NCBI GenBank assembly: GCA_963795715.1
Contig: CAWCIY010000002.1
Location: forward strand, 1,156,131-1,180,130
Length of the DNA: 24,000 nt
Source: an uncultured Pseudomonadota bacterium
Lineage (GTDB): Bacteria > Pseudomonadota > Gammaproteobacteria > Coxiellales > Coxiellaceae
Direction: 5' to 3'
Both the position numbers and the translations under genes were made by a program. This document shows positions 9,877 through 20,478 of the stretch, one piece after another. Below the pieces are notes generated by a model that saw only the letters and a list, made by a program, of their open reading frames with translations, was not told the DNA's origin and did not search any database. Position 1 is the stretch's first letter, and each line of letters starts with the position of its first letter.

Positions 9877-10439
9877 GATCAACTCTCCTTGAGTTTAGTT
9901 GGTTGTGGCCGTGCGACGTGAGGTTGTTTTATTGATTGTTTCTACCTAAGAGATCAAGGTGAGAAACCGGTTGTTTCGCCAACCGTTTCCTACCCGAACA
10001 TGCGATCCCGGCGACGGGATGGTGTGAAGCTCCGGGGACAACGAAGCCGTGGGATTAAACAAGCTACCCGATAAGATTTTTCGTGAGGAAATCTAAAATC
10101 CCTAATATCCATGGGATGAGGCGCCAGGAAGAATGGCATGGTTAATGTAATGTAAATCTTCGTAACTATCGTAAGCAACAAACAGCTAAAGGATATTGGT
10201 AAGCTGTAGCCAAAAGGCAAGAAGTCAGGATAAGAGCTGACCACTCTCTTATCGCGAATGTTGAACTTCCGGTGGATAGAAGAAACCTAAACCATTTCGT
10301 CAATAAAATAGAACATGTCAAATCTGTTGATCTCCTTTGAGCCAGGGAAAGCAAACCGTAAGGTGCGCCGAAAGGTCAGCAGAATTAGGAGGATGAACGA
10401 AGCGAATGCCACCCGGTAATAGGATGGATAGGGATTGAG

Positions 10440-10469
10440 TTTTTTTTTTGAAAAAAAAAAAAAAAAAAA
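10440..10469. repeat. Homopolymer pair T10-G-A19 inside the intron ribozyme
   Basis: Read directly: 10 T (10440-10449), G (10450), 19 A (10451-10469). It is immediately followed by a GCGC-GAAA-GCGC tetraloop hairpin. Confidence 0.95.
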
Positions 10470-10540
10470 TAATATCATCCCGCGCGAAAGCGCTGCCCAA
10501 GTTCATCTGGTTCTTATAACGAGAAGGATTCGAAAACCGA

Positions 10541-10957
10541 ATGAAAGCAGGTACGCAGGATAGGAGTAACCCTGGAGTTGCTGACGCGGCCTCACAACGT
10601 GATATACCTTGGCATCATATTCATTGGCGTCAAGCGCATAAAACGGTGAATCGGCTTCAATCCCGCATCGTTTCGGCATTGCAGGAAGGCAATCATCGTA
10701 AAGTCCGCGCTTTACAGATCCTTCTGACAAAATCGTTATCCGCAGCTGCAATGGCTGTGAGACAGGTGACCGAAAATACAGGAAAAAGAACGCCCGGTAT
10801 TGATCAGGAAGTTTGGAAAACCAACAACCAAAAAGCCGAAGCCATCAGTCGGATTCGCGCCAGTCGATATCGAGCTAAACCCCTTCGTCGAATCTATATC
10901 CCTAAACCCGGCAAGGACGAAAAACGTCCCTTGAGTATCCCGACGGTGACTTCATAA
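10541..10957 (+). pseudogene. Group II intron reverse transcriptase, N-terminal fragment
   Basis: ...VNRLQSRIV...LQILLTKSLSAAAMAVRQVTENTGKRTPGID...YIPKPGKDEKRPLSIPT, followed by VTS* where the insertion begins. Confidence 0.85.
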
Positions 10958-13048
10958 TACACCTCCTTCAATTTTATTTTGGGATTTTGATCGCGCAATA
11001 GCAATTTTGGTTGAATTTTCAACTATCCTCCTAAGTTCAAGCTCTTTTTCTGGTCCAATAAATAACCAGAACTTCAAGCCGCTGCGTCGCTTGCTAATCA
11101 TACCACGTTCAATCCAGTCATAAATCACATACTGGCTCACGTTAAATTTTTCGGCGGCTTCCTTGACGGATATCTCTCCTTCTTTTTGCCGTCGTGGCGC
11201 AGGGATTTTATGCTTAAATCGAATCCATTGAACACCCTCTATCGTAAAAGAATTTCCCTTATTGGTTTTCAATCCCATTTGATTAAATTGCCCAACAATT
11301 TGCTGATCAGTCATCGTCAATGCTAATTGCCGGACTTGTTCAATCAACTCAGGAGAATGACGCCATTTTTCATGTGATTTTTGAGGTAATTCTACTTCTA
11401 TGCTTTCCGTGGCTCCACCTTGCCAGCGAATATGCAATGTGCTTTTTCTAGCGTTAATTAATTTCTCTACCGTAATATCTTTAATAAGCAGTCGCAAAAT
11501 ACGTTTACGATCTTTTGAACTGGTAGAATCAGCATTCCAGAGAACACTAAAATCTTTGGCTAATGCCACAATATTTTCCTTGTGTTGTTTTATTTGAATG
11601 AGCGCATTTTTTTCTTGATATTCAGCATATTTCTTATGAATTTCTTCCAGCGCTATTAACGATTCATTCCAACGTTTTTCAAGGGTTGCGGCGACTAGTC
11701 GATTAGACGGATCGACTTCCTCATAACGTCGTTGGGCGATTTGCACTTCATAATCTGCTCTGTCGATCTTCATTTTCCACTGTTTTTCTAGAGACTTCGC
11801 CTCTTTGTTCCAATTCTTCAAATGCTTTAATTGCAATATCAATTTGATTCGAATTCATGACGGTTAATATTTTTTTTGAAATAGTTTGATCTAATGGAGT
11901 AGCTAATACAGAAAGACAGGATTTAAGATGAACACCATTACGTTTTTGCCAATTACACTGATAAGCAGGGCGAATCCCATTATGATCCGTATAACGCACA
12001 GTCAGCCGATAACCACAACGACCACAGATTAATAATCCTTGTAATAAAGCATGTCCTTCTCTTGCCGCTGTAGAGGTTAGGTTTTCTAATCCGTTCGTTT
12101 TATTTTTTTCAAGGCTCTTTTGATTATTTAAATAGTCTTCCCAAGAAATATAGCCTTCATGATGATCTTTTATCATGACATGCCATTTATCCATCGGCAA
12201 ACACTGAGTGGTTATTTGTAATTGACCGGTACTCGATAATTTTTTATTAAAGCGATGACGTCCATATACATAAACACCCGCATAATTAGGGTTTTTTATG
12301 ACACCTAATACTCGAGAATCCGTCAATGTTCCCCATATTAATTTTCCTTTCCAAGCTCCACCGTAGGCACGTTTAGGAAATAAAATTTCATTCTCATCTA
12401 AAGTATTTAACTACTGCATAAGCAGCTGCCTCTCTCTTTAAATACTTTAAATAACAACTGAATAACGTGGCGCACTTGTTCATCACAATCAATATAATGT
12501 GACCTTCTTCGTTATAGCATAATCCTATTGGCAAAGGTGATCGCAACTCACCTTTTTTAGCTTTATTCATTTTCCCTCCCTGGAGGCGCGCGCGAATAAA
12601 ATGCAGCTCGGCTTGCGACATGGTTCCCTTGATTCCCAACAACAATTGGTCGTTGAAATCGGCAGGATTGTAACAACCATCTTCGTCGATAATCAATGTA
12701 TTCGTTAATCGCACATAATTCCAATAAACGATGCCAATCGGTACAAGACCGTGATAGTCGAGAAGCTTCCAAAGCAAAGACTGCTCCGACTTTCCCCATC
12801 GAAACATCCGCTACGAGCAATTTGAAATCTTCGCGGTGATTCGCTTGACTGCCCGACAATCCTAAATCCCCATCCAATATTTTGATCGCTTGTTGAGGCC
12901 ATCCCATCTGCTGTGCCTTGTCTCGAAGAGCATATTGGCGCTGAGTACTTTCCTGATTGAAGCGTACTTGTGCCATCGTCGATTGCCGAAGGTAAATATA
13001 CGCTGGTTTGGCCGTGTGTTGGGGTTGAATTTTGGTTTCTATCATCAT
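10952..13048 (-). pseudogene. Large serine recombinase (~699 codons), multiply frameshifted
   Basis: The N-terminal resolvase domain reads AYIYLRQSTMAQV...ALEASRLSRSCTDWHRLLELC. The gene then continues in other frames: TLIIDEDGCYNP..GIKGTMSQAELHFIRARLQGG; LDCDEQVRHVIQLLF; AAYAVVKYF; ENEILFPKR..NPNYAGVYVYGR..LLICGRCGYRL (zinc ribbon); coiled coil YEEVDPSNRLVAATLEKRWNE; and a C-terminal HTH-like tail. Frame changes lie near 12700-12715, 12485-12495, ~12424, ~12396 and 11795-11815. Confidence 0.85.
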
Positions 13049-13191
13049 GATTCAGTTTCTCCCTTTGAGTAGATATCATTTTATTTTTGTCCAAATAGTC
13101 TTGTAGCATATTCGCTACAATGATGGCGGCATGAGCCGTATTCAATGATGTCAGGGAGGATGAATCCATTTCAGATACTCTAATTTCCTTT

Positions 13192-13531
13192 TTAAAAATT
13201 GACTTTTCGTAACAATAGCTCGCGATTGATATCGCTGATTTCTCCTATAATTGCTTGGGCTTTTCGATAATTTTCTAACGCCTCTTCGACGATTACCTTG
13301 TTTTCCATAGACACGTAGATTAAAACAGTCTCTTGCATCCGGTATACTGACAGAAAGGTAATAAGTCGGCCCATGCTTGCTCCCTTCGTTGCAATGGCAA
13401 TTGGTTTTCCCACACTGTTTGTACCTTTCGATGAGTGACCCTCGCATCATATTTTCTTCGATGCTTTGTAAGTTCTTTGTATAAGCGTTCCTTCTCTTTT
13501 GACGTAGATGAGTGGAAGTAAAATTTTTCAT
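13192..13531 (-). pseudogene. DUF6788-like small protein, one frameshift
   Basis: MRGSLIERYKQCGKTNCHCNEGSKHGPTYYLSVS in one frame continues as ...ETVLIYVSMENKVIVEEALENYRKAQAIIGEISDINRELL in another, with the shift near 13350-13365. The RGSL..CGK.NC.C....HGPYYYL...YV pattern is the family signature as I recall it. Confidence 0.6.
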
Positions 13532-13537
13532 AAATAC

Positions 13538-13561
13538 CTGGACAGTTGTTAAACTGTCCAG
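13538..13561. repeat. Perfect 10-bp stem / 4-nt loop palindrome between the DUF5372-like and DUF6788-like genes
   Basis: CTGGACAGTT-GTTA-AACTGTCCAG, lying 6 nt upstream of the DUF6788-like ATG on the minus strand. Confidence 0.6.
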
Positions 13562-13585
13562 ATTCTACTATGAAATTTTCATAAT

Positions 13586-13945
13586 TCAATTTCTATTTTT
13601 TTGTTGGTTAACTGGTTTTAAAGTAGAGATCAAATCAGCCAATTGTTGAAGATGTGTAAAAGACAAAATAGGCGGGTGTTCAGATAACGATTGCAAAGGA
13701 TTGATATCAGCCTGATCAGTCCATTCTCGAGGAATACCAAAGGTACCTTGAAGGGATCCTTGCAAACTTAAAATGTCTTCATTGTACCTCTTTAAAGAAA
13801 GAATCTTAAATTTCTGACCTCTTAAAGGATGAAAAGGATGAGTAATGGTTGCCCATCCCGAAGATTGACTGTACTGATGTGCAGTTAGCTTTGACCGTGC
13901 CGTGCATGGTGGACAGAGCGAAACAAGCCTTACATCTATTAGCAT
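13586..13945 (-). CDS. DUF5372-like (Y4bD/Y4pK-type) small protein; the annotated ATG lies in flanking antisense RT sequence
   Basis: Conserved core ITHPFHPLRGQKFKIL...GIPREWTDQADINP...LSFTHLQQLADLI. The first ~12-14 codons (MLIDVRLVSLCPP...) are read from the antisense strand of the RT gene, outside the cassette. No ATG, GTG or TTG lies in frame inside the cassette upstream of ITHPF. Confidence 0.6.
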   Translation of the reverse strand: MLIDVRLVSLCPPCTARSKLTAHQYSQSSGWATITHPFHPLRGQKFKILSLKRYNEDILSLQGSLQGTFGIPREWTDQADINPLQSLSEHPPILSFTHLQQLADLISTLKPVNQQKNRN

Positions 13946-15204
13946 TAGATCCGATTGCGGAATACTATGCGGATTTAAACTCCTATGGTTTTCGCAAGAA
14001 AAGATCCACAGCCGATGCTATTGAGGCTTGTCGAATCTGTCTTTTCAGGAAAAACTCTGCAAAATGGGTCCTGGAAGGTGACATCAAAGGCTGTTTTGAC
14101 AACATCTCGCACACGTGGTTAATGAAATGGATTCCGATGAATAAACGAGTACTCGCACAATGGTTAAAGGCGGGATATATCGATCAGAAAACTTTCTATG
14201 AAACCGATCTCGGGACTCCCCAGGGGGGTATAGCGTCACCGGTATTGGCTAACCTAACGCTGGATGGATTAGAAGCTCAAATTAAGCTTCAATTCAAAAA
14301 ACAGAAGGTCAATGTCATCCGCTACGCCGACGATTTTATCATCACCGGAGAATCAAAAGAACTCCTGGAAAATAAAATCAAACCCGCTGTGGAAAAATTT
14401 TTGCAGATCAGAGGACTCTCTCTATCTCAGAAAAAGACCCATATCACCCACATGGAAGAAGGATTCGATTTTCTTGGCTTCAATCTTCGCTGGATGAAAG
14501 ACCAGCTCGTCATCAAACCAGCGAAAGCGAAGGTGAAAGCAGTGCTCGCCAAAATCAGGCTAACATTGCGCAAAGGTTTACACCGACAACCAGGAGATAT
14601 CATTAGTCAACTCAATCCTATTATTAGAGGATGGGGTAACTATTATCGCCACTGTTGCTGTTCTCGAACATTCTGCTACCTCGATCATCAAATCTGGCAA
14701 GCGCTTTGGCGTTGGGCGATGAGAAGACATCCCGGCAAAGGCAAAAGATGGGTCAAAGATAAATACTTTAAGAAAACACACAGAACAGCCTGGGATTTCT
14801 GCGGAAAATCGTTCGAAGGGCTTCCCATTTATCTCACTATGGCCCGGTCTGTTCATCACAAAAAGCATATCAAAATCCGTCAGGAAGCCAATCCTTACGA
14901 TCCTCAATATGCCCAGTATTTTGAACAACGCCGCCGGAATACGACTGATATTCCAGATAGAAAACTTCTAAGAAATCTATGGCTTGAACAAAAGGGATTA
15001 TGCCCACTCTGCCAAACGGTAATCACACAACAGTCTGGATGGCATATGCATCACATCATACATCGGAGTCGCCAAGGCAAAAACACTCAAGAAAATCTGG
15101 TCTTGTTGCACCCAATGTGTCATGATCAATGGCATCTACGCGATAGCGAGAGCAAAGCCGGGCTTTCCAGGAAAGTCTTTAAGAGCTTGAGCCGTATGCA
15201 GTGA
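13906..15204 (+). pseudogene. Group II intron reverse transcriptase, C-terminal fragment (RT domains, maturase X, HNH endonuclease)
   Basis: It resumes MVDRAKQALHLLALDPI. It contains SYGFRKKRS, GTPQGGIASPVLANL, the IRYADDFII (YADD) active site, the maturase motif RGWGNYYR, and HNH motifs CPLCQ...HHIIHRSRQG...LHPMCHDQWH. There is no internal stop. Confidence 0.85.
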
Positions 15205-15263
15205 AAGTTGCACGTACGGTTCTTAGGGGACGGGGTCACGGTAACGTGATCTTGTTACCCGAC
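15189..15263 (+). ncRNA. Group II intron domains V and VI
   Basis: Domain V is GAGCCGTATGCAGTGAAAGTTGCACGTACGGTTC (34 nt) with an AGC triad, a 2-nt bulge and a GAAA loop. Domain VI is GGGGACGGGGTCACG-GTAA-CGTGATCTTGTT-A-CCC, with an unpaired A at 15257 six nt before the 3' end (..GAC). Confidence 0.8.
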
Positions 15264-15514: not shown

Positions 15515-16339
15515 ATGGCGCGCTATCTTGATCCGAAAGTGGATGTAGTTTTTAAAAAAATCTTTGGTCAGCACCCTCATTTGTTGAGGAGTTTTCTAAA
15601 CGCTGTACTGCCTTTGCCGGAAGGAACCTGGATAGAGTCATTGGAGTATTTAAGCAGTAAGCAAACCCCAGAAATTCCGGTATTTAAAACCACGGTAGTG
15701 GATGTAAAATGTAAAGACCAGATGGGCAGAATATTCATTGTAGAGATGCAAATTCAATGGACGGATGCATTTAAGCAGCGGTTGTCGTTTGGAGCCAGCA
15801 CTGCTTACGTGCGCCAACTGAAGCATGGAGAGGATTATAATTTATTAAAGCCGGTTTACGGTTTAGGATTGTTAGCCAGTGTCTTTGATAAAGAAACTCC
15901 GCAGTGGTATCACCATTATAAATTAGTGAATATCGGCCAGCCGGAACGAGAGATCAAGCATTTACAGTTAGTATTTATTGAACTGCCGAAATTTAAACCG
16001 GCGTCCTTTCAGGAAAAAAAACTGCAAGCGCTCTGGTTAAGCTTTATGTCCGAATTAAATGATGAGACCCAAACTATTCCTGAAGAATGGTTAAATGAGC
16101 CGGAAATTGCAGAAGCAGTACAACTAAGCCGGCAATCAGCTTATACAAAATCAGAATTGCAAGCGTATGATAAATATTGGGATGCAGTAAGTACAGAAAA
16201 AACTCTAATTTCAGGGGCTTATCATGAAGGTAGGCATGAAGAAAAAGTACTTATTGCTCGAAAACTATTATTGTCTGGTATGAAAAAAGACGAAGTTTTG
16301 GCAATAACCGGTTTATCACTTCAAGATTTAGAAACCTGA
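15515..16339 (+). CDS. Rpn-family recombination-promoting nuclease / PD-(D/E)XK putative transposase
   Basis: N-terminal YLDPKVDVVFKKIFG and the nuclease core VVDVKCKDQMGRIFIVEMQIQ are the typical signature of this family. Confidence 0.8.
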   Translation: MARYLDPKVDVVFKKIFGQHPHLLRSFLNAVLPLPEGTWIESLEYLSSKQTPEIPVFKTTVVDVKCKDQMGRIFIVEMQIQWTDAFKQRLSFGASTAYVRQLKHGEDYNLLKPVYGLGLLASVFDKETPQWYHHYKLVNIGQPEREIKHLQLVFIELPKFKPASFQEKKLQALWLSFMSELNDETQTIPEEWLNEPEIAEAVQLSRQSAYTKSELQAYDKYWDAVSTEKTLISGAYHEGRHEEKVLIARKLLLSGMKKDEVLAITGLSLQDLET

Positions 16340-16965: not shown

Positions 16966-19900
16966 ATGAAGATCTCAAAAATCAACGGTTTTACCCCCTA
17001 TTTGGCCATTGTTTTCTTCAACGCCTTTGTAGATTTAGGACATAAAATTTTAATTCAGAACACTTTGTACAGAACTTTAAATGCCTCCCAATTTACTACT
17101 TGGTCGGCGATTATTAACGCGCTGATTTTAATACCTTACATCTTATTATTTACTCCTTCTGGTTTTGTCGCCGATTATTTTTCCAAAACCAAGGTCTTGA
17201 GGGTGACTGCTTTGGCGGTTATACCCGCGACAATTCTAATAACGGTTTGTTATTTCCTGGGCTTATTTTGGTGCGCTTTCAGTTTAACACTTTTGTTAGC
17301 TATTCAAAGCGCCTTCAATTCACCTGCAAAATATGGCTTTATTAAAGAAATTTTTGGCAAAGATAACATTGCTGAAGCCAATGGCTTAGTGCAGACAGTA
17401 GCCATTATTGCTATTTTAGCTGGCACTTTTGCTTTTACCCTGCTCTTCACTTTTTTCCTTTCACACAAAGGATTTACTCATTCAACTCCCGCCACAGCAG
17501 CCCAATTGTTAAAAGCTTTTGCGCCCTGCGGTTTTTTATTAATTATTGCCGCCAGCGCTGAAGCTTGGTTGACTTTCCTTCTTCCAATAAAACCTCCTGC
17601 GGATGCGGGTTCAAACTATCTTTTACGAAATTATTTTACCGGCAAAAACCTGCATGGCAATTTAAAAAGTCTAAACGGCAACTCAGTGATCCTAACCTGT
17701 ATTTTTGGCTTATCCCTCTTTTGGGGGATCAACCAAGTATTGCTGGCAAGCTACGGAGCCTATCTAAAAGAATTTGTTACCAGCGCCAGCGAGATTTATA
17801 TCAATGGGGCCTTGGCTATTGGTGGTATCGGCATATTTTTTGGAGCGTTTTATGCTGGACGAATCTCCCGGGGATTTATTGAAACAGGTGTTATCCCAAT
17901 CGCAGCAGTTGGAATGAGTTTAGGTCTGCTTTTATTAGCTTTTATCACCAACAAAACCAGTATTCTATTGTTATTTTTCGGCTATGGTTTCTTTGGCGGA
18001 TTATTGATCGTGCCTTTAAATGCCTTAATTCAATACCATGCCCAATCTAAAAATCTTGGCACCGTCCTGGCCAGCAATAACTTTGTGCAAAATATTTTTA
18101 TGCTGGCCTTCCTCATTCTTACAGTAGTTGGCGCTAATGCAGGTCTAAATTCTCGAATGAGTTTAATTATTCTATTTTTATTGGCTTTGATCGGCAGTAT
18201 TTATGCTTTAAAGCGTTTACCGCAATCGTTAGTTCGCTATCTTATTTTTTTCTTTGTTTCCAAATTTTATAAAGTCAAAGTAGAGGGTTTAAATAACTTA
18301 CCTTCTAGCGGCGGGGTTTTATTGCTGGGAAATCACACCAGCTTTCTTGATTGGGCCTTGTTACAAATTGCTTGCCCTAGACCGCTTCATTTTGTGATTG
18401 ACCGGCAGTTTTATGAAACCTGGTATTTAAAACTATTTCTTAAAGCAGCAGGAGCCATTCCCATTTCCAAAGGAGGCAGCAAAGGAGCCATTGAAGCAAT
18501 CGAAAACGCTTTAAAATCAGGCCAGGTAGTCGCTTTATTCCCTGAAGGTTATATCAGCCGCAATGGCCAGCTGGGCACATTTCAAAAAGGCTTTGAAAAA
18601 GCGGTGGCGGGAACCAATGCAGTGATTGTGCCTTTTTACATTCATGGTTTATGGGGCACAATGGTTTCATATGCCACTCGTCAGTACAAAACAACGAGTG
18701 GACGACACTTTCGAACAATCAGTGTCAGCTATGGTCCTTCCTTACCTGCTGAAGCAACTGCAGCCACTGTAAAACAAGCTGTTTTTAATTTATCTATTAA
18801 GGCTTGGCAAAATTACAGCGATACCTTAAAAAGCACCGCAGTGGAATGGCTCCGGCGAGCCAAAAGCAAAGGCGCTGAATTAGCGATCGCTGATTCTTCT
18901 GGAAAAAAAATTTCTAACCAGCAACTAATCGCTCTTGTTTGGTATTTAATAGCTGAACTAAAATCCAACTTAAAGACTGAGTCCAATATAGGTATCCTAT
19001 TGCCTCCCGGCATAGGCGGCGCTGCTACCAATTTAATGGTGTGGGGGCTCAACAAAACCGCGGTAAATTTAAACTATACTGCTGGTAAAAACGCTATAAT
19101 TCAAGCTTGTGAACAAGCTGAAATTAAAATAGTGATTTCTTCACGTTTATTTTTAAACCGTCTCAGCAAAAAAGGGTTTGCTAGCGAAGAAATACTAGCC
19201 GATAAACAGGTTTTTTATTTGGAAGATTTATTACAAAAAAGCAAGTTTGCTATTTTTTCTAGGCTTATTCTAAGCAAAATACTACCTTTCTCTCTTTTAA
19301 AATATTTTGTTCTGAGCTCTGGTCAAAGTATTCATCATGTTGGTGTCATTTTATTTAGCAGTGGTAGTGAAGGCAAACCCAAAGGAGTTGAATTAACTCA
19401 TCGAAACTTATTAATTAATGCCAAACAGGTATCTAGTATTGCAAATATAGAAACAAAGGATGTTATTTTAAGTTGCTTGCCTTTATTTCATGCTTTTGGC
19501 CTTACTGTAACTACGATTTTGCCCTTAGTAGAGGGTATCCCAATGGCCTGCCATCCAGATCCTAGAGACGCCGTTGAGATTGGCAAACTGGTTTTTAATT
19601 ACCAAGTGAGTTTTATGGCAGCTACTTCCACATTCCTTAATTTTTATTGCCGCAATCATCGCCTGCATCCCTTACTGTTCAAAAGCTTACGTTTAGTCAT
19701 TGCAGGAGCAGAAAAATTATCACCTCAAGTCCGGGACGCGTTTAAACAAAAATTTGGGATTGATGTTTTCGAGGGTTATGGTGCAACCGAAGTGGCTCCC
19801 GTAGCCAGCACAAATCTGAACGATATTATCAATCCGGATGACTTACATTTACATGTGTCCAATAAAATTGGCACCGTAGGTCTACCAGTCCCCGGCACTT

Positions 19901-20478
19901 GTTTTCGAATTGTAGATCCTATGACTCTTGAAGATTTGCCATTAGGTGCAGAAGGTATGGTGTTAATCGGCGGCCCTCAAGTAATGAAAGGCTATCTAAA
20001 AAACCCTGAAAAAACTCTACAGGTTTTAAATAAACAAGATGACATCGATTGGTATGTTACTGGAGATAAAGGAAAATTAGATGAAGAGGGTTTTTTAATT
20101 ATCGTGGATCGTTATTCTCGTTTTGCTAAAATTGGGGGTGAGATGATTAGCTTGAGTTTGGTGGAGCAAACCATTAGAGAAATATTAGATATTGAAAGTT
20201 TAGATTTAATGGTAATCTCTTTGCCAGACGATAAAAAAGGGGAAGCATTAATTTTGCTTTATCAAGCGCAAATAACTCCGGACGAATTATTAGCGAAATT
20301 ACGTGCTGCTAAAATCCCACCGCTCATAATTCCCAGCGACTGCTTCGCTGTTGCCGAATTACCTAAATTAGGTAGCGGAAAAAGCGATTATAGCGCCGCG
20401 AAGCAGTTGGCTAGCAAATTGCTTTCAAATTCAAATATATTACATGCTGGGGTCAACCCAAACATAATAGGGAATTGA
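16966..20478 (+). CDS. aas: Triple-fusion lysophospholipid transporter (LplT-like MFS) / PlsC-type acyltransferase / acyl-ACP synthetase (Aas)
   Basis: Residues ~1-420 are a polytopic MFS. An acyltransferase HX4D motif follows (GNHTSFLDWA, then FPEGYISR). The C-terminal part is an AMP-binding domain (ILFSSGSEGKPKGVELTH, GYGATE, GDKGKLDEEGFLIIVDR, SGKSD). Confidence 0.85.
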   Translation: MKISKINGFTPYLAIVFFNAFVDLGHKILIQNTLYRTLNASQFTTWSAIINALILIPYILLFTPSGFVADYFSKTKVLRVTALAVIPATILITVCYFLGLFWCAFSLTLLLAIQSAFNSPAKYGFIKEIFGKDNIAEANGLVQTVAIIAILAGTFAFTLLFTFFLSHKGFTHSTPATAAQLLKAFAPCGFLLIIAASAEAWLTFLLPIKPPADAGSNYLLRNYFTGKNLHGNLKSLNGNSVILTCIFGLSLFWGINQVLLASYGAYLKEFVTSASEIYINGALAIGGIGIFFGAFYAGRISRGFIETGVIPIAAVGMSLGLLLLAFITNKTSILLLFFGYGFFGGLLIVPLNALIQYHAQSKNLGTVLASNNFVQNIFMLAFLILTVVGANAGLNSRMSLIILFLLALIGSIYALKRLPQSLVRYLIFFFVSKFYKVKVEGLNNLPSSGGVLLLGNHTSFLDWALLQIACPRPLHFVIDRQFYETWYLKLFLKAAGAIPISKGGSKGAIEAIENALKSGQVVALFPEGYISRNGQLGTFQKGFEKAVAGTNAVIVPFYIHGLWGTMVSYATRQYKTTSGRHFRTISVSYGPSLPAEATAATVKQAVFNLSIKAWQNYSDTLKSTAVEWLRRAKSKGAELAIADSSGKKISNQQLIALVWYLIAELKSNLKTESNIGILLPPGIGGAATNLMVWGLNKTAVNLNYTAGKNAIIQACEQAEIKIVISSRLFLNRLSKKGFASEEILADKQVFYLEDLLQKSKFAIFSRLILSKILPFSLLKYFVLSSGQSIHHVGVILFSSGSEGKPKGVELTHRNLLINAKQVSSIANIETKDVILSCLPLFHAFGLTVTTILPLVEGIPMACHPDPRDAVEIGKLVFNYQVSFMAATSTFLNFYCRNHRLHPLLFKSLRLVIAGAEKLSPQVRDAFKQKFGIDVFEGYGATEVAPVASTNLNDIINPDDLHLHVSNKIGTVGLPVPGTCFRIVDPMTLEDLPLGAEGMVLIGGPQVMKGYLKNPEKTLQVLNKQDDIDWYVTGDKGKLDEEGFLIIVDRYSRFAKIGGEMISLSLVEQTIREILDIESLDLMVISLPDDKKGEALILLYQAQITPDELLAKLRAAKIPPLIIPSDCFAVAELPKLGSGKSDYSAAKQLASKLLSNSNILHAGVNPNIIGN

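Follow-up and report, generated by a model that had tools for sequence, protein, structure and literature searches.

A DUF5372 gene that is probably split by the attachment site of its own compact serine-recombinase element

In this study we analysed a stretch of 24,000 nucleotides (the window) on contig CAWCIY010000002.1 (assembly GCA_963795715.1) of an uncultured gammaproteobacterium of the Coxiellaceae. It holds a group II intron whose reverse transcriptase (RT) is present as two open reading frame (ORF) pieces, 10541-10957 with RVT_N and 13849-15204 with RVT_1, GIIM and HNH. The two pieces are separated by a cassette of three genes on the minus strand, which encode a DUF5372-like protein, DUF6788 and a large serine recombinase (LSR). 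Our subject is the DUF5372 gene, which has no start codon within the cassette, together with a Shine-Dalgarno (SD) sequence and an ATG that lie at the opposite end and face outwards; the two probably belong to one gene, which would be complete only when the ends of the element are joined. The features needed for the argument are given here in window coordinates, with attP for the attachment site formed by the joined ends and attL and attR for the sites at the ends of the integrated element.

9967-15263, plus strand: host group II intron; domains I-IV start at 9967-10124 and domain V/VI lies at 15187-15263; Rfam RF02012 (93 bits) and RF00029 (66 bits)
10541-10942, plus strand: N-terminal part of the intron RT ORF; Pfam RVT_N, 5.9e-31; ends at the Pro codon CCG (10940-10942) of RPLSIP
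13903-15204, plus strand: C-terminal part of the intron RT ORF; RVT_1, GIIM and HNH by Pfam; begins at the TGC of CMVDRAKQ
10943-13902, minus strand: inserted LSR element, 2960 bp; boundaries ambiguous within a 3-nt microhomology CCG/CGG (10940-10942 = 13900-13902)
10940-10941, minus strand: core dinucleotide GG at attR (recombinase side)
13900-13901, minus strand: core dinucleotide GG at attL (DUF5372 side); equals the CC of the RT Pro codon and is the centre of attP symmetry
10942-10962, minus strand: P arm of attP, -21 to -1, GTGTATT ATG AAG TCACCGTC; encodes codons 1-5 (MKSPS) of the reconstructed ORF
13879-13899, minus strand: P' arm of attP, +1 to +21, CACGGTCA AAGCTA ACTGCAC; encodes DUF5372 codons 6-12 (ARSKLTA)
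10960-10968, minus strand: Shine-Dalgarno sequence AAGGAGGTG, separated from the ATG by 4 nt (by 6 nt if GGAGG is taken as its end)
10953-10955, minus strand: start codon ATG, attP positions -14 to -12; overlaps the recombinase stop TGA (10952-10954) as ATGA
10902-10955, minus strand: 17-codon ORF MKSPSGYSRDVFRPCRV (then a stop), opened by the terminal ATG in the integrated state and entering antisense RT DNA; not conserved
13586-13900, minus strand: body of the DUF5372 gene, which lacks a start codon, ARSKLTAHQYSQSSGWATITHPFHPL... as far as the stop codon (13586-13588); assigned by Pfam PF17342 and homologues

The two ends of the cassette form one reading frame

On the minus strand, the left end of the cassette reads ...GAAGGAGGTGTATTATGAAGTCAC..., which includes the outward-facing start. 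At the other end, the ORF 13586-13945 matches Pfam PF17342 with 42.7 bits against a cut-off of 25 (E = 5.7e-11), the match beginning at residue 34 with ITHPFHPL. Between the junction and this motif the DUF5372 frame contains no ATG, GTG or TTG, and its sole start, at 13945, lies in the antisense RT DNA of the flank. When the two ends are joined, the cassette strand reads ...AAGGAGGTGTATT ATG AAG TCA CCG TC[G G]CA CGG TCA AAG CTA ACT GCA CAT... and translates as one open frame, MKSPSARSKLTAHQYSQSSGWATITHPFHPL. The junction peptide is MKSPSARSKLTAHQ...ITHPFHPL, i.e. MKSPS-ARSKLTAHQ..., with the core placed between codons 5 and 6. On the RT strand, the N-terminal RT ORF continues past 10942 into element DNA and meets a stop at 10957. 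Recalculation confirmed that a deletion length of 2 mod 3 in the window both restores the RT frame and aligns the ATG with DUF5372.

The exact crossover was obtained from empty sites. A search with the reconstructed RT gave P0043 (79% identity), P0045 and P0046-P0052 as the closest intact proteins, all of which read RPLSIP-CMV-DRAKQ across the insertion point; P0043 and P0045 read RPLSIPCMVDRAKQ. The empty-site DNA at locus L083, which encodes P0043, is CGTCCCTTGAGTATACCGTGCATGGTGGAT. The left flank of the window agrees with it through ...GAGTATCCCG (10942) and the right flank from CCGTGCATGG (13900), which gives a microhomology of 3 nt (CCG in the RT sense, CGG on the cassette strand), an insertion of 2960 bp and no target-site duplication. 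A first model, with the crossover at TCAC[CG], was rejected. It would let the RT read ...IPT-CMV-DR and needs a 3-nt ATG insertion in the related locus L001 and a mutation in L004, whereas intact RTs read IP-CMV-DR, the GG core is central in the attP symmetry, and this core accounts for the window, L001, L003 and L004 without extra events.

An earlier note on this DNA had described the left end with the recombinase TGA (10954-10952), the overlapping ATG, the upstream SD and the 17-codon integrated ORF, as well as the DUF5372 frame with its only start at 13945, and all of this holds. Its placement of attP inside the first codons of the gene and its mod-3 arithmetic are likewise borne out, and the comparison with empty sites that it had proposed leaves the two pieces in frame and free of stops. 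From its example deletions of 2960 and 2963 bp, the former is the true one. The peptide that it derived, MKSRTARSK..., has to be replaced by MKSPSARSKLTAHQ..., as the crossover lies within the CGG at 13902-13900 and 10942-10940.

Related elements share the geometry of the attachment site

Homologous elements were collected in two ways. A word-based protein search returned 42 DUF5372 proteins with inconsistent N-termini, and a scan of one genome per species yielded 80 loci (numbered with L) from Pseudomonadota, Bacillota, Chloroflexota, Acidobacteriota, Actinomycetota, Planctomycetota and others. The window element is about 95-97% identical to the intact copies L001, L003 and L004. A common geometry of start codon, 14 nt, core, 50 nt and domain motif is shared by 46 distinct related elements. 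The core was tested with two fixed distances, 14 nt from the first base of the start codon to the beginning of the core and 52 nt from there to the TITHPFHP motif. So placed, the dinucleotides of the two junctions agree in 42 of the 46 distinct loci, compared with at most 12 of 46 in controls with shifted offsets. Seven kinds of core were found: GG (24), CC (7), TT (6), GA (2), and GC, TG and TA with one case each.

The reconstructed attP arms of 41 distinct sites are symmetric in two blocks, at positions ±2-6 and ±15-21. Complementarity between the arms amounts to 0.68-0.80 at ±2, 3, 5 and 6 and to 0.78-0.95 at ±15, 17, 19, 20 and 21, and GTGCA(G/T)T at -21 to -15 mirrors ACTGCAC at +15 to +21. 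Such a two-block symmetry is the pattern that would be expected of LSR half-sites. Elements lying antisense to the RT have GG as core, and those in sense orientation (L005, L006, L023, L026, L027, L030 and L031) have CC, both of which correspond to the CC of the RT Pro codon; this would be expected if the core dinucleotide sets the orientation of insertion, as it does for LSRs. In Alicyclobacillus sp. ALC3, the flanks of four copies of 2972 bp that are 100% identical diverge exactly outside the two GG cores, and the high-coverage stand-alone repeat contigs L027, L043 and L067 start and end 0-4 nt from the cores. With its domains, an identical 2-bp core without duplication, an attP with inverted repeats and an orientation set by the core, the window cassette can be classed as an LSR integrative element. 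The joined-end k-mer is TATGAAGTCACCGTCGGCACGGTCAAAGC for the subfamily of the window and GTATGAATTCACCGTCGGGACGGTCAG for ALC3 (NZ_CP066784.1), whose predicted junction peptide reads MNSPSGR... Inside DUF5372, a conserved TCGGGATG (13856-13866; codons S-G-W-A: TCG GGA TGG GC) resembles the antisense RT target ..CGTCGGGATGCC.., which may be a coincidence or a secondary site of the recombinase.

The putative translation start at the element end is conserved on one arm only

The end motif GAGGTGCAxT-ATG was detected at the recombinase-side end in 53 loci, in a few of which the start codon is GTG. All substitutes for the terminal ATG (in L017, L022, L025 and L063) are GTG, that is, another start codon. 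Across the 41 distinct sites, the ATG at -14 to -12 carries 1.7-2.0 bits, and GAGG is conserved throughout the family at -24 to -21. The mirror positions on the other arm hold little information and are rarely complementary. As the ATG and the GAGG are conserved on one attP arm only, symmetric binding of the recombinase does not explain them. The recombinase stop precedes the SD-ATG by 65 nt in Alicyclobacillus and likewise lies upstream of it in Ktedonobacteria; the signal is therefore independent of the recombinase C-terminus. The ATGA overlap of stop and start is specific to the subfamily of the window, while an SD and a start codon at the element end are general.

The joined frame is free of stops in all 46 reconstructed elements. 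The deletion length modulo 3 differs among loci, and 0, 1 and 2 all occur. At 15 loci with RT on both flanks, which served as the sample for a scripted frame test, the remainder that restores the RT is also the one that aligns the ATG with DUF5372 in 14 cases. The exception, L002, has a decayed RT, and its codons beside the junction agree when read by hand. The recurrence of the end signals and of the frame relation in 46 distinct elements argues for more than chance.

The extent of coding was studied in 67 distinct DUF5372 5' regions, each with 17 codons on the element side and 17 codons beyond the boundary. Inside the element, a stop in the DUF5372 frame was found in one of the 67, and in the other two frames in 30 and 43. 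Within the 17 codons beyond the boundary the DUF5372 frame is interrupted in 36 of 67. About half of the regions (34/67) contain no in-frame ATG, GTG or TTG at all; in the remaining 33 the usual candidate is a TTG at codon 14 or a GTG at codon 17, and an SD is missing from 40 of the 42 internal candidates in this sample. Between +22 and +50, outside the symmetric att blocks, the sequence varies, its length is constant and the DUF5372 frame is stop-free. Gene callers place the N-termini of DUF5372 proteins anywhere from 1 to 139 residues before the domain (1532 cluster representatives from an exhaustive profile search). An AlphaFold (AF2) model with a pLDDT of 76, whose sequence starts at codon 6, predicts a small SH3-like beta-barrel and a helix; residues 1-8 of the model are disordered, and the first beta-strand lies upstream of the Pfam start.

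The checks of homologous cassettes proposed in the earlier note came out in its favour, with a start-less DUF5372 in 34 of 67 regions, internal starts that mostly have no SD, and an outward SD and start codon in 53 loci. Its expectation that the start would overlap the recombinase stop held for one subfamily. It had also said what would speak against the idea, namely homologues whose DUF5372 has its own internal ribosome-binding site and start, or an out-of-frame crossover, and neither of these was what we found.

A gene that is probably completed by joining the element ends

Our reading is that the element is a compact integrative element moved by its LSR, with attP inside the 5' end (codons 1-12) of its own accessory gene DUF5372. 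The recombinase-side end would supply the SD, the ATG and codons 1-5, and the other end the start-less gene from codon 6 onwards. Integration (attP x attB) would separate the DUF5372 body from its translation start, and in the integrated state the terminal ATG would open a short ORF that enters the target and has no meaning. SD-ATG-MKSPS-ARSKL...DUF5372 would be rebuilt directly behind the recombinase gene by excision (attL x attR) to a circle, or wherever the ends meet head to tail, so that DUF5372 could be regarded as the last gene of the recombinase operon and as specific to the circle. The best explanation in our view, and a probable one, is that the joined form alone, be it an excised circle or a tandem, allows translation of DUF5372. 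We infer the formation of the circle, as LSR chemistry predicts, and likewise the translation of the junction ORF, for which the comparison of sequences speaks. The boundaries, the core, the attP symmetry and the stop-free frame are shown by this comparison, as are the missing internal starts and the conservation of SD and ATG on one side only; the case for a split gene is made by the conserved frame in combination with the stop pattern, the absence of starts and this one-sided conservation.

Several points weigh against such a split gene. In around half of the loci, a TTG or GTG that might act as a weak start lies in frame 1-4 codons ahead of the domain, and in L001, L002, L039 and L040 the insertion has created an in-frame ATG at attL. 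The spacing between start, core and domain is constant, and the conservation of the frame alone could reflect an inherited att-site architecture instead of selection for coding. No attP junction was detected among the metagenome matches listed for the degenerate pattern ATGNNNTCACCGTCSSSACGKT, which comprise chance matches and a few attR, or in viral contigs with two specific patterns. An N-terminus of the attP type (M.SPS...) is present in none of the 42 DUF5372 proteins of the word search or the 39 that were inspected from the profile search. If DUF5372 were a classical excision factor, its production only after excision would be paradoxical. Finally, no PDB sequence matches DUF5372, and none of its fold matches is significant (best Foldseek E-value 0.05).

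The strongest alternative, which we nevertheless consider unlikely, holds that the terminal GAGGTGCAxTATG is merely an arm for recombinase binding, that the open junction frame is a by-product of att spacing, and that the integrated element makes DUF5372 from a weak TTG or GTG near the domain or from starts that happen to be present in the flank. The motif does in part belong to the att arm, as GTGCA(G/T)T has its mirror image in ACTGCAC, and the spacing is invariant. Yet an arm of this kind would not account for an ATG and a GAGG that are conserved on one side with uninformative mirror positions, nor for an ATG that gives way to GTG only. The 33 of 67 loci with some in-frame ATG, GTG or TTG within 17 codons of the domain are in its favour, but the other 34 have none, and nearly all candidates are without SD. 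Moreover, according to the structural model, a protein begun at codon 14-17 would be without the predicted first beta-strand, and the part from +22 to +50 keeps its length and its open frame beyond the att blocks in spite of variable sequence. The ATG at attL fits a fortuitous flank start; in insertions of the L001/L002 type it is a hybrid of AT from the flank and G from the core and has no SD. The proteins P0001-P0003 (MARSKL...), which at first sight could prove an internal DUF5372 start, were discarded for this purpose, as their ATG is this hybrid attL codon.

Very improbable, by comparison, is a function of the terminal SD-ATG in the integrated state, as a site of ribosome restart on a short outward ORF or of translation into the target, with no part in completing DUF5372. 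The ATGA overlap with the recombinase stop in the window subfamily is a classic signature of coupling and fits this view. However, the outward ORF, which in the window consists of 17 codons of antisense RT, is short and not conserved, the flanks differ among loci, and the motif is uncoupled from the recombinase stop in several subfamilies. In sense-oriented insertions the ATG is out of frame with the C-terminal part of the RT, as we read from the L026 junction, and the missing start of DUF5372 would be left unexplained. Mere decay, i.e. loss of the DUF5372 start by mutation in a dead element, fits the window copy with its pseudogenes and about ten single-nucleotide indels relative to intact relatives, but can be dismissed, as the intact L001, L003 and L004 (recombinases of 697-698 aa) and the four ALC3 copies share the start-less 5' end and the terminal SD-ATG.

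If DUF5372 is thus made from the joined form, it may act together with the recombinase on the excised element, in directionality control or autoregulation, but this is a guess. In a wider form of our proposal, DUF5372/LSR cassettes are widespread, undescribed serine-recombinase transposons of 2.3-3.6 kb inside other mobile elements, in which a split gene embedded in attP serves as a sensor of topology. DUF5372 would then be a product of the circle only, acting with the recombinase, e.g. by favouring re-integration or shutting down the operon, and would be silenced by integration. We put this forward tentatively, with somewhat more doubt than confidence. With regard to transcription, no convincing -35/-10 pair was seen by eye across the reconstructed junction, the promoter scan having covered the integrated sequence only; there, matches to the promoter consensus are no commoner than in shuffles.

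Targets of the element family

Most of the 80 loci are flanked by RT sequences, with the junction always at the same RT residues and in both orientations (tblastn with two RT queries). L001 and L002, with intact recombinases of 697 and 696 aa, lie antisense in the RT of a group II intron of a different class, at the same motif (RPLGIP). In Ktedonobacteria/Chloroflexota, the elements L053, L070, L075 and L078 are inserted antisense in a conserved C-terminal motif of ISL3 transposases, and the reconstructed target is recognised by Pfam as DDE_Tnp_ISL3 (4e-33). L074 is inserted in an IS66 transposase (reconstructed target DDE_Tnp_IS66, 4e-93); it is listed as a metagenome-assembled genome of Gammaproteobacteria but groups with L065/L067, a subfamily from Acidobacteriota. 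It appears that the family has specialised in conserved motifs of genes of other mobile elements. The complete genome of the cultured Alicyclobacillus sp. ALC3 contains its four identical copies (L039-L042) at no fewer than three different sites, which points to recent movement of the element. Cultured strains that carry elements of the family also include Lamprobacter modestohalophilus DSM 25653, Thiocapsa imhoffii DSM 21303, Edaphobacter aggregans DSM 19364 and Ktedonobacter racemifer DSM 44963.

Two loci have unusual flanks. In L003, the RT on the recombinase side is 94% identical to that of the window and the one on the DUF5372 side only 55%. These flanks seem to derive from different introns, possibly because element copies have recombined or because a repeat has given rise to a chimeric assembly. 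L007 has the N-terminal RT part (..LGIAM) on both flanks, facing the element from opposite sides, with the core in the palindrome CCATGG. Here, an inversion between two copies or a misassembly could be considered.

Decay of the window copy and the other genes of the cassette

The remaining features of the cassette are the following.

10952-13048, minus strand: LSR pseudogene in four frames (12563-13048, 12394-12807, 11748-12326 and 10952-11842); Pfam Resolvase, Recombinase and Zn_ribbon_recom
13151-13531, minus strand: DUF6788 gene, frameshifted; PF20586 with 1.2e-14 and 1.5e-3 on two frames, the second piece being 13192-13413
13538-13589, minus strand: promoter-like TTGAAT-16-TAGAAT (13589-13562), followed by the palindrome CTGGACAGTT-TAAC-AACTGTCCAG (13561-13538)

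The LSR fragments match PF00239, PF07508 and PF13408, the fragment 12563-13048 contains the motif YLRQST, and the intact homologues of 697-698 aa carry the same domains. In comparison with these intact copies, single-nucleotide indels are found in the LSR near 12710, 12490, 12426, 12396 and 11795. DUF6788 is frameshifted by a 1-nt insertion near 13331, and in total the element has about ten such indels relative to L001, L003 and L004; both att ends are intact. The frameshifted pseudogenes of recombinase and DUF6788 had no place in the earlier note. Neighbouring host genes are intact, e.g. an ORF of 1170 aa at 16966-20478, which makes sequencing errors an unlikely source of the indels. The window copy is decayed. 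With its recombinase lost, it can no longer run the cycle itself, and the switch would here be a fossil. Residues 225-261 of the ORF 10952-11842 form a stretch similar to HTH_17, MerR and excisionases (E = 1e-4, below the Pfam cut-off), probably an extra DNA-binding module after the zinc ribbon and the coiled-coil region. Immediately 3' of the intron lies an ORF of 274 aa (15515-16339, plus strand) that has the look of a recombination-promoting nuclease of the Rpn/YhgA type; judging from its sequence, we take it to be a neighbour of the intron related to mobile DNA.

The palindrome has arms of 10 bp and ends 7 nt before the DUF6788 ATG (13531). Together with the promoter-like site it is conserved at the same position in L001-L003, and in L003 it shows a compensatory change of A>G and T>C (CTGGGCAGTT...AACTGCCCAG). 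By itself, the match of TTGAAT-16-TAGAAT to the consensus is no better than in shuffles, and we keep it as a lead for its conservation with the palindrome. Imperfect palindromes or hairpins were seen by eye at the same place in other subfamilies (L018, L021 and L023), and exact ones in L017/L025. The palindrome could be an operator or an RNA hairpin. From the position of both elements just upstream of DUF6788, it seems that DUF6788 and the recombinase are transcribed from a start of their own. The earlier note had assumed that integration disconnects DUF6788 along with DUF5372. For DUF5372 this is supported by the sequence data, but for DUF6788 it is not, as this gene has its own ATG behind the conserved site. 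DUF6788 is absent from several subfamilies.

A Cys motif of DUF6788 was not seen in L005, L006, L008, L019, L020, L053, L063, L070, L073 and L076. In L053, L070 and L073 the recombinase ORF opens at or overlaps the DUF5372 stop, so that the coupled ORFs would form a closed ring once the ends are joined. L025 has a single open frame of 950 aa that extends from the DUF5372 stop across DUF6788 to the recombinase.

Significance

If our reading of DUF5372 is correct, the element presents a translational version of state-dependent logic that is hard-wired into the recombination site, in an arrangement conserved in at least Pseudomonadota, Bacillota, Chloroflexota, Acidobacteriota, Actinomycetota and Planctomycetota. 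The split gene would also explain the arbitrary N-termini that gene callers assign to DUF5372 proteins. In our search of the literature, we found no paper that mentions DUF5372 or DUF6788 and none on this element family; queries for a serine recombinase with a group II intron, or for a circular intermediate with a start codon, gave nothing relevant, and a large LSR survey makes no mention of RT or intron targets. The analysis brings to light elements that seem to be specialised in colonising other mobile elements. It defines attP, attB and core dinucleotide for a large set of compact LSRs with short conserved target motifs which, with one or two candidate accessory factors, might become raw material for recombinase engineering. 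ALC3, which is cultured and has four identical copies, would be a convenient experimental system.

Comparison with known systems

Circles of the insertion sequences (IS) IS911, IS30 and IS21 have promoters at their junctions. State-dependent integrase promoters are also described for integrative and conjugative elements (ICE), with Pcirc of ICEclc and P3'end of ICEKp1 (PMC13023037). As in these cases, a signal at the end of our element would read across attP, or the circle junction, into the gene at the other end. Those systems, however, are transcriptional, involve enzymes of the tyrosine or DDE type and regulate the integrase or transposase, whereas the present one would be a translational split of an accessory gene.

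The closest parallel among serine recombinases is Tn4451/Tn4453 with TnpX, in which the joint of the circle forms a promoter for tnpX, according to the account of Lyras & Rood 2000 given in PMC13023037. Tn4451/Tn4453, too, is a small element moved by an LSR, and joining of its ends in the circle creates an expression signal that is missing when it is integrated. There, the halves of a promoter for the recombinase gene are united; here, it would be an SD, a start codon and five codons with the body of an accessory gene, so that attP lies within coding sequence. An attP within a gene is known from mycobacteriophages such as BPs, where it is located near the 3' end of the repressor gene and integration yields a shorter, stable and active repressor (PMC4557955, PMC3694055). 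Common to BPs and our element would be an attP inside the element's own ORF and the use of the recombination state as a genetic switch. In contrast to BPs, attP is situated at codons 5-6, and what the gene loses on integration is its ribosome-binding site, its start and five codons, so that it is predicted to be off in the integrated state. Furthermore, the DUF5372 product is not a recognisable repressor, and there is no C-terminally truncated active repressor.

Large serine integrases of phages and ICEs work with recombination directionality factors, such as gp47 of Bxb1 and gp3 of phiC31. To our knowledge, these factors have no common sequence or fold signature as a class, and we know of none whose gene is split by attP. 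Like these integrases, our family has Resolvase, Recombinase and zinc-ribbon domains, a 2-bp core, an imperfectly symmetric attP and small accessory genes. Unlike them, it consists of elements of about 3 kb without cargo that target conserved motifs in genes of other mobile elements, with DUF5372 and DUF6788 as uncharacterised accessory proteins. State-dependent expression is thus known for promoters (Tn4451, ICEclc, IS circles) and for truncation at the 3' end (phage immunity); here it would be translational and would act on the 5' end of an accessory gene of an LSR, in what is apparently an undescribed family.

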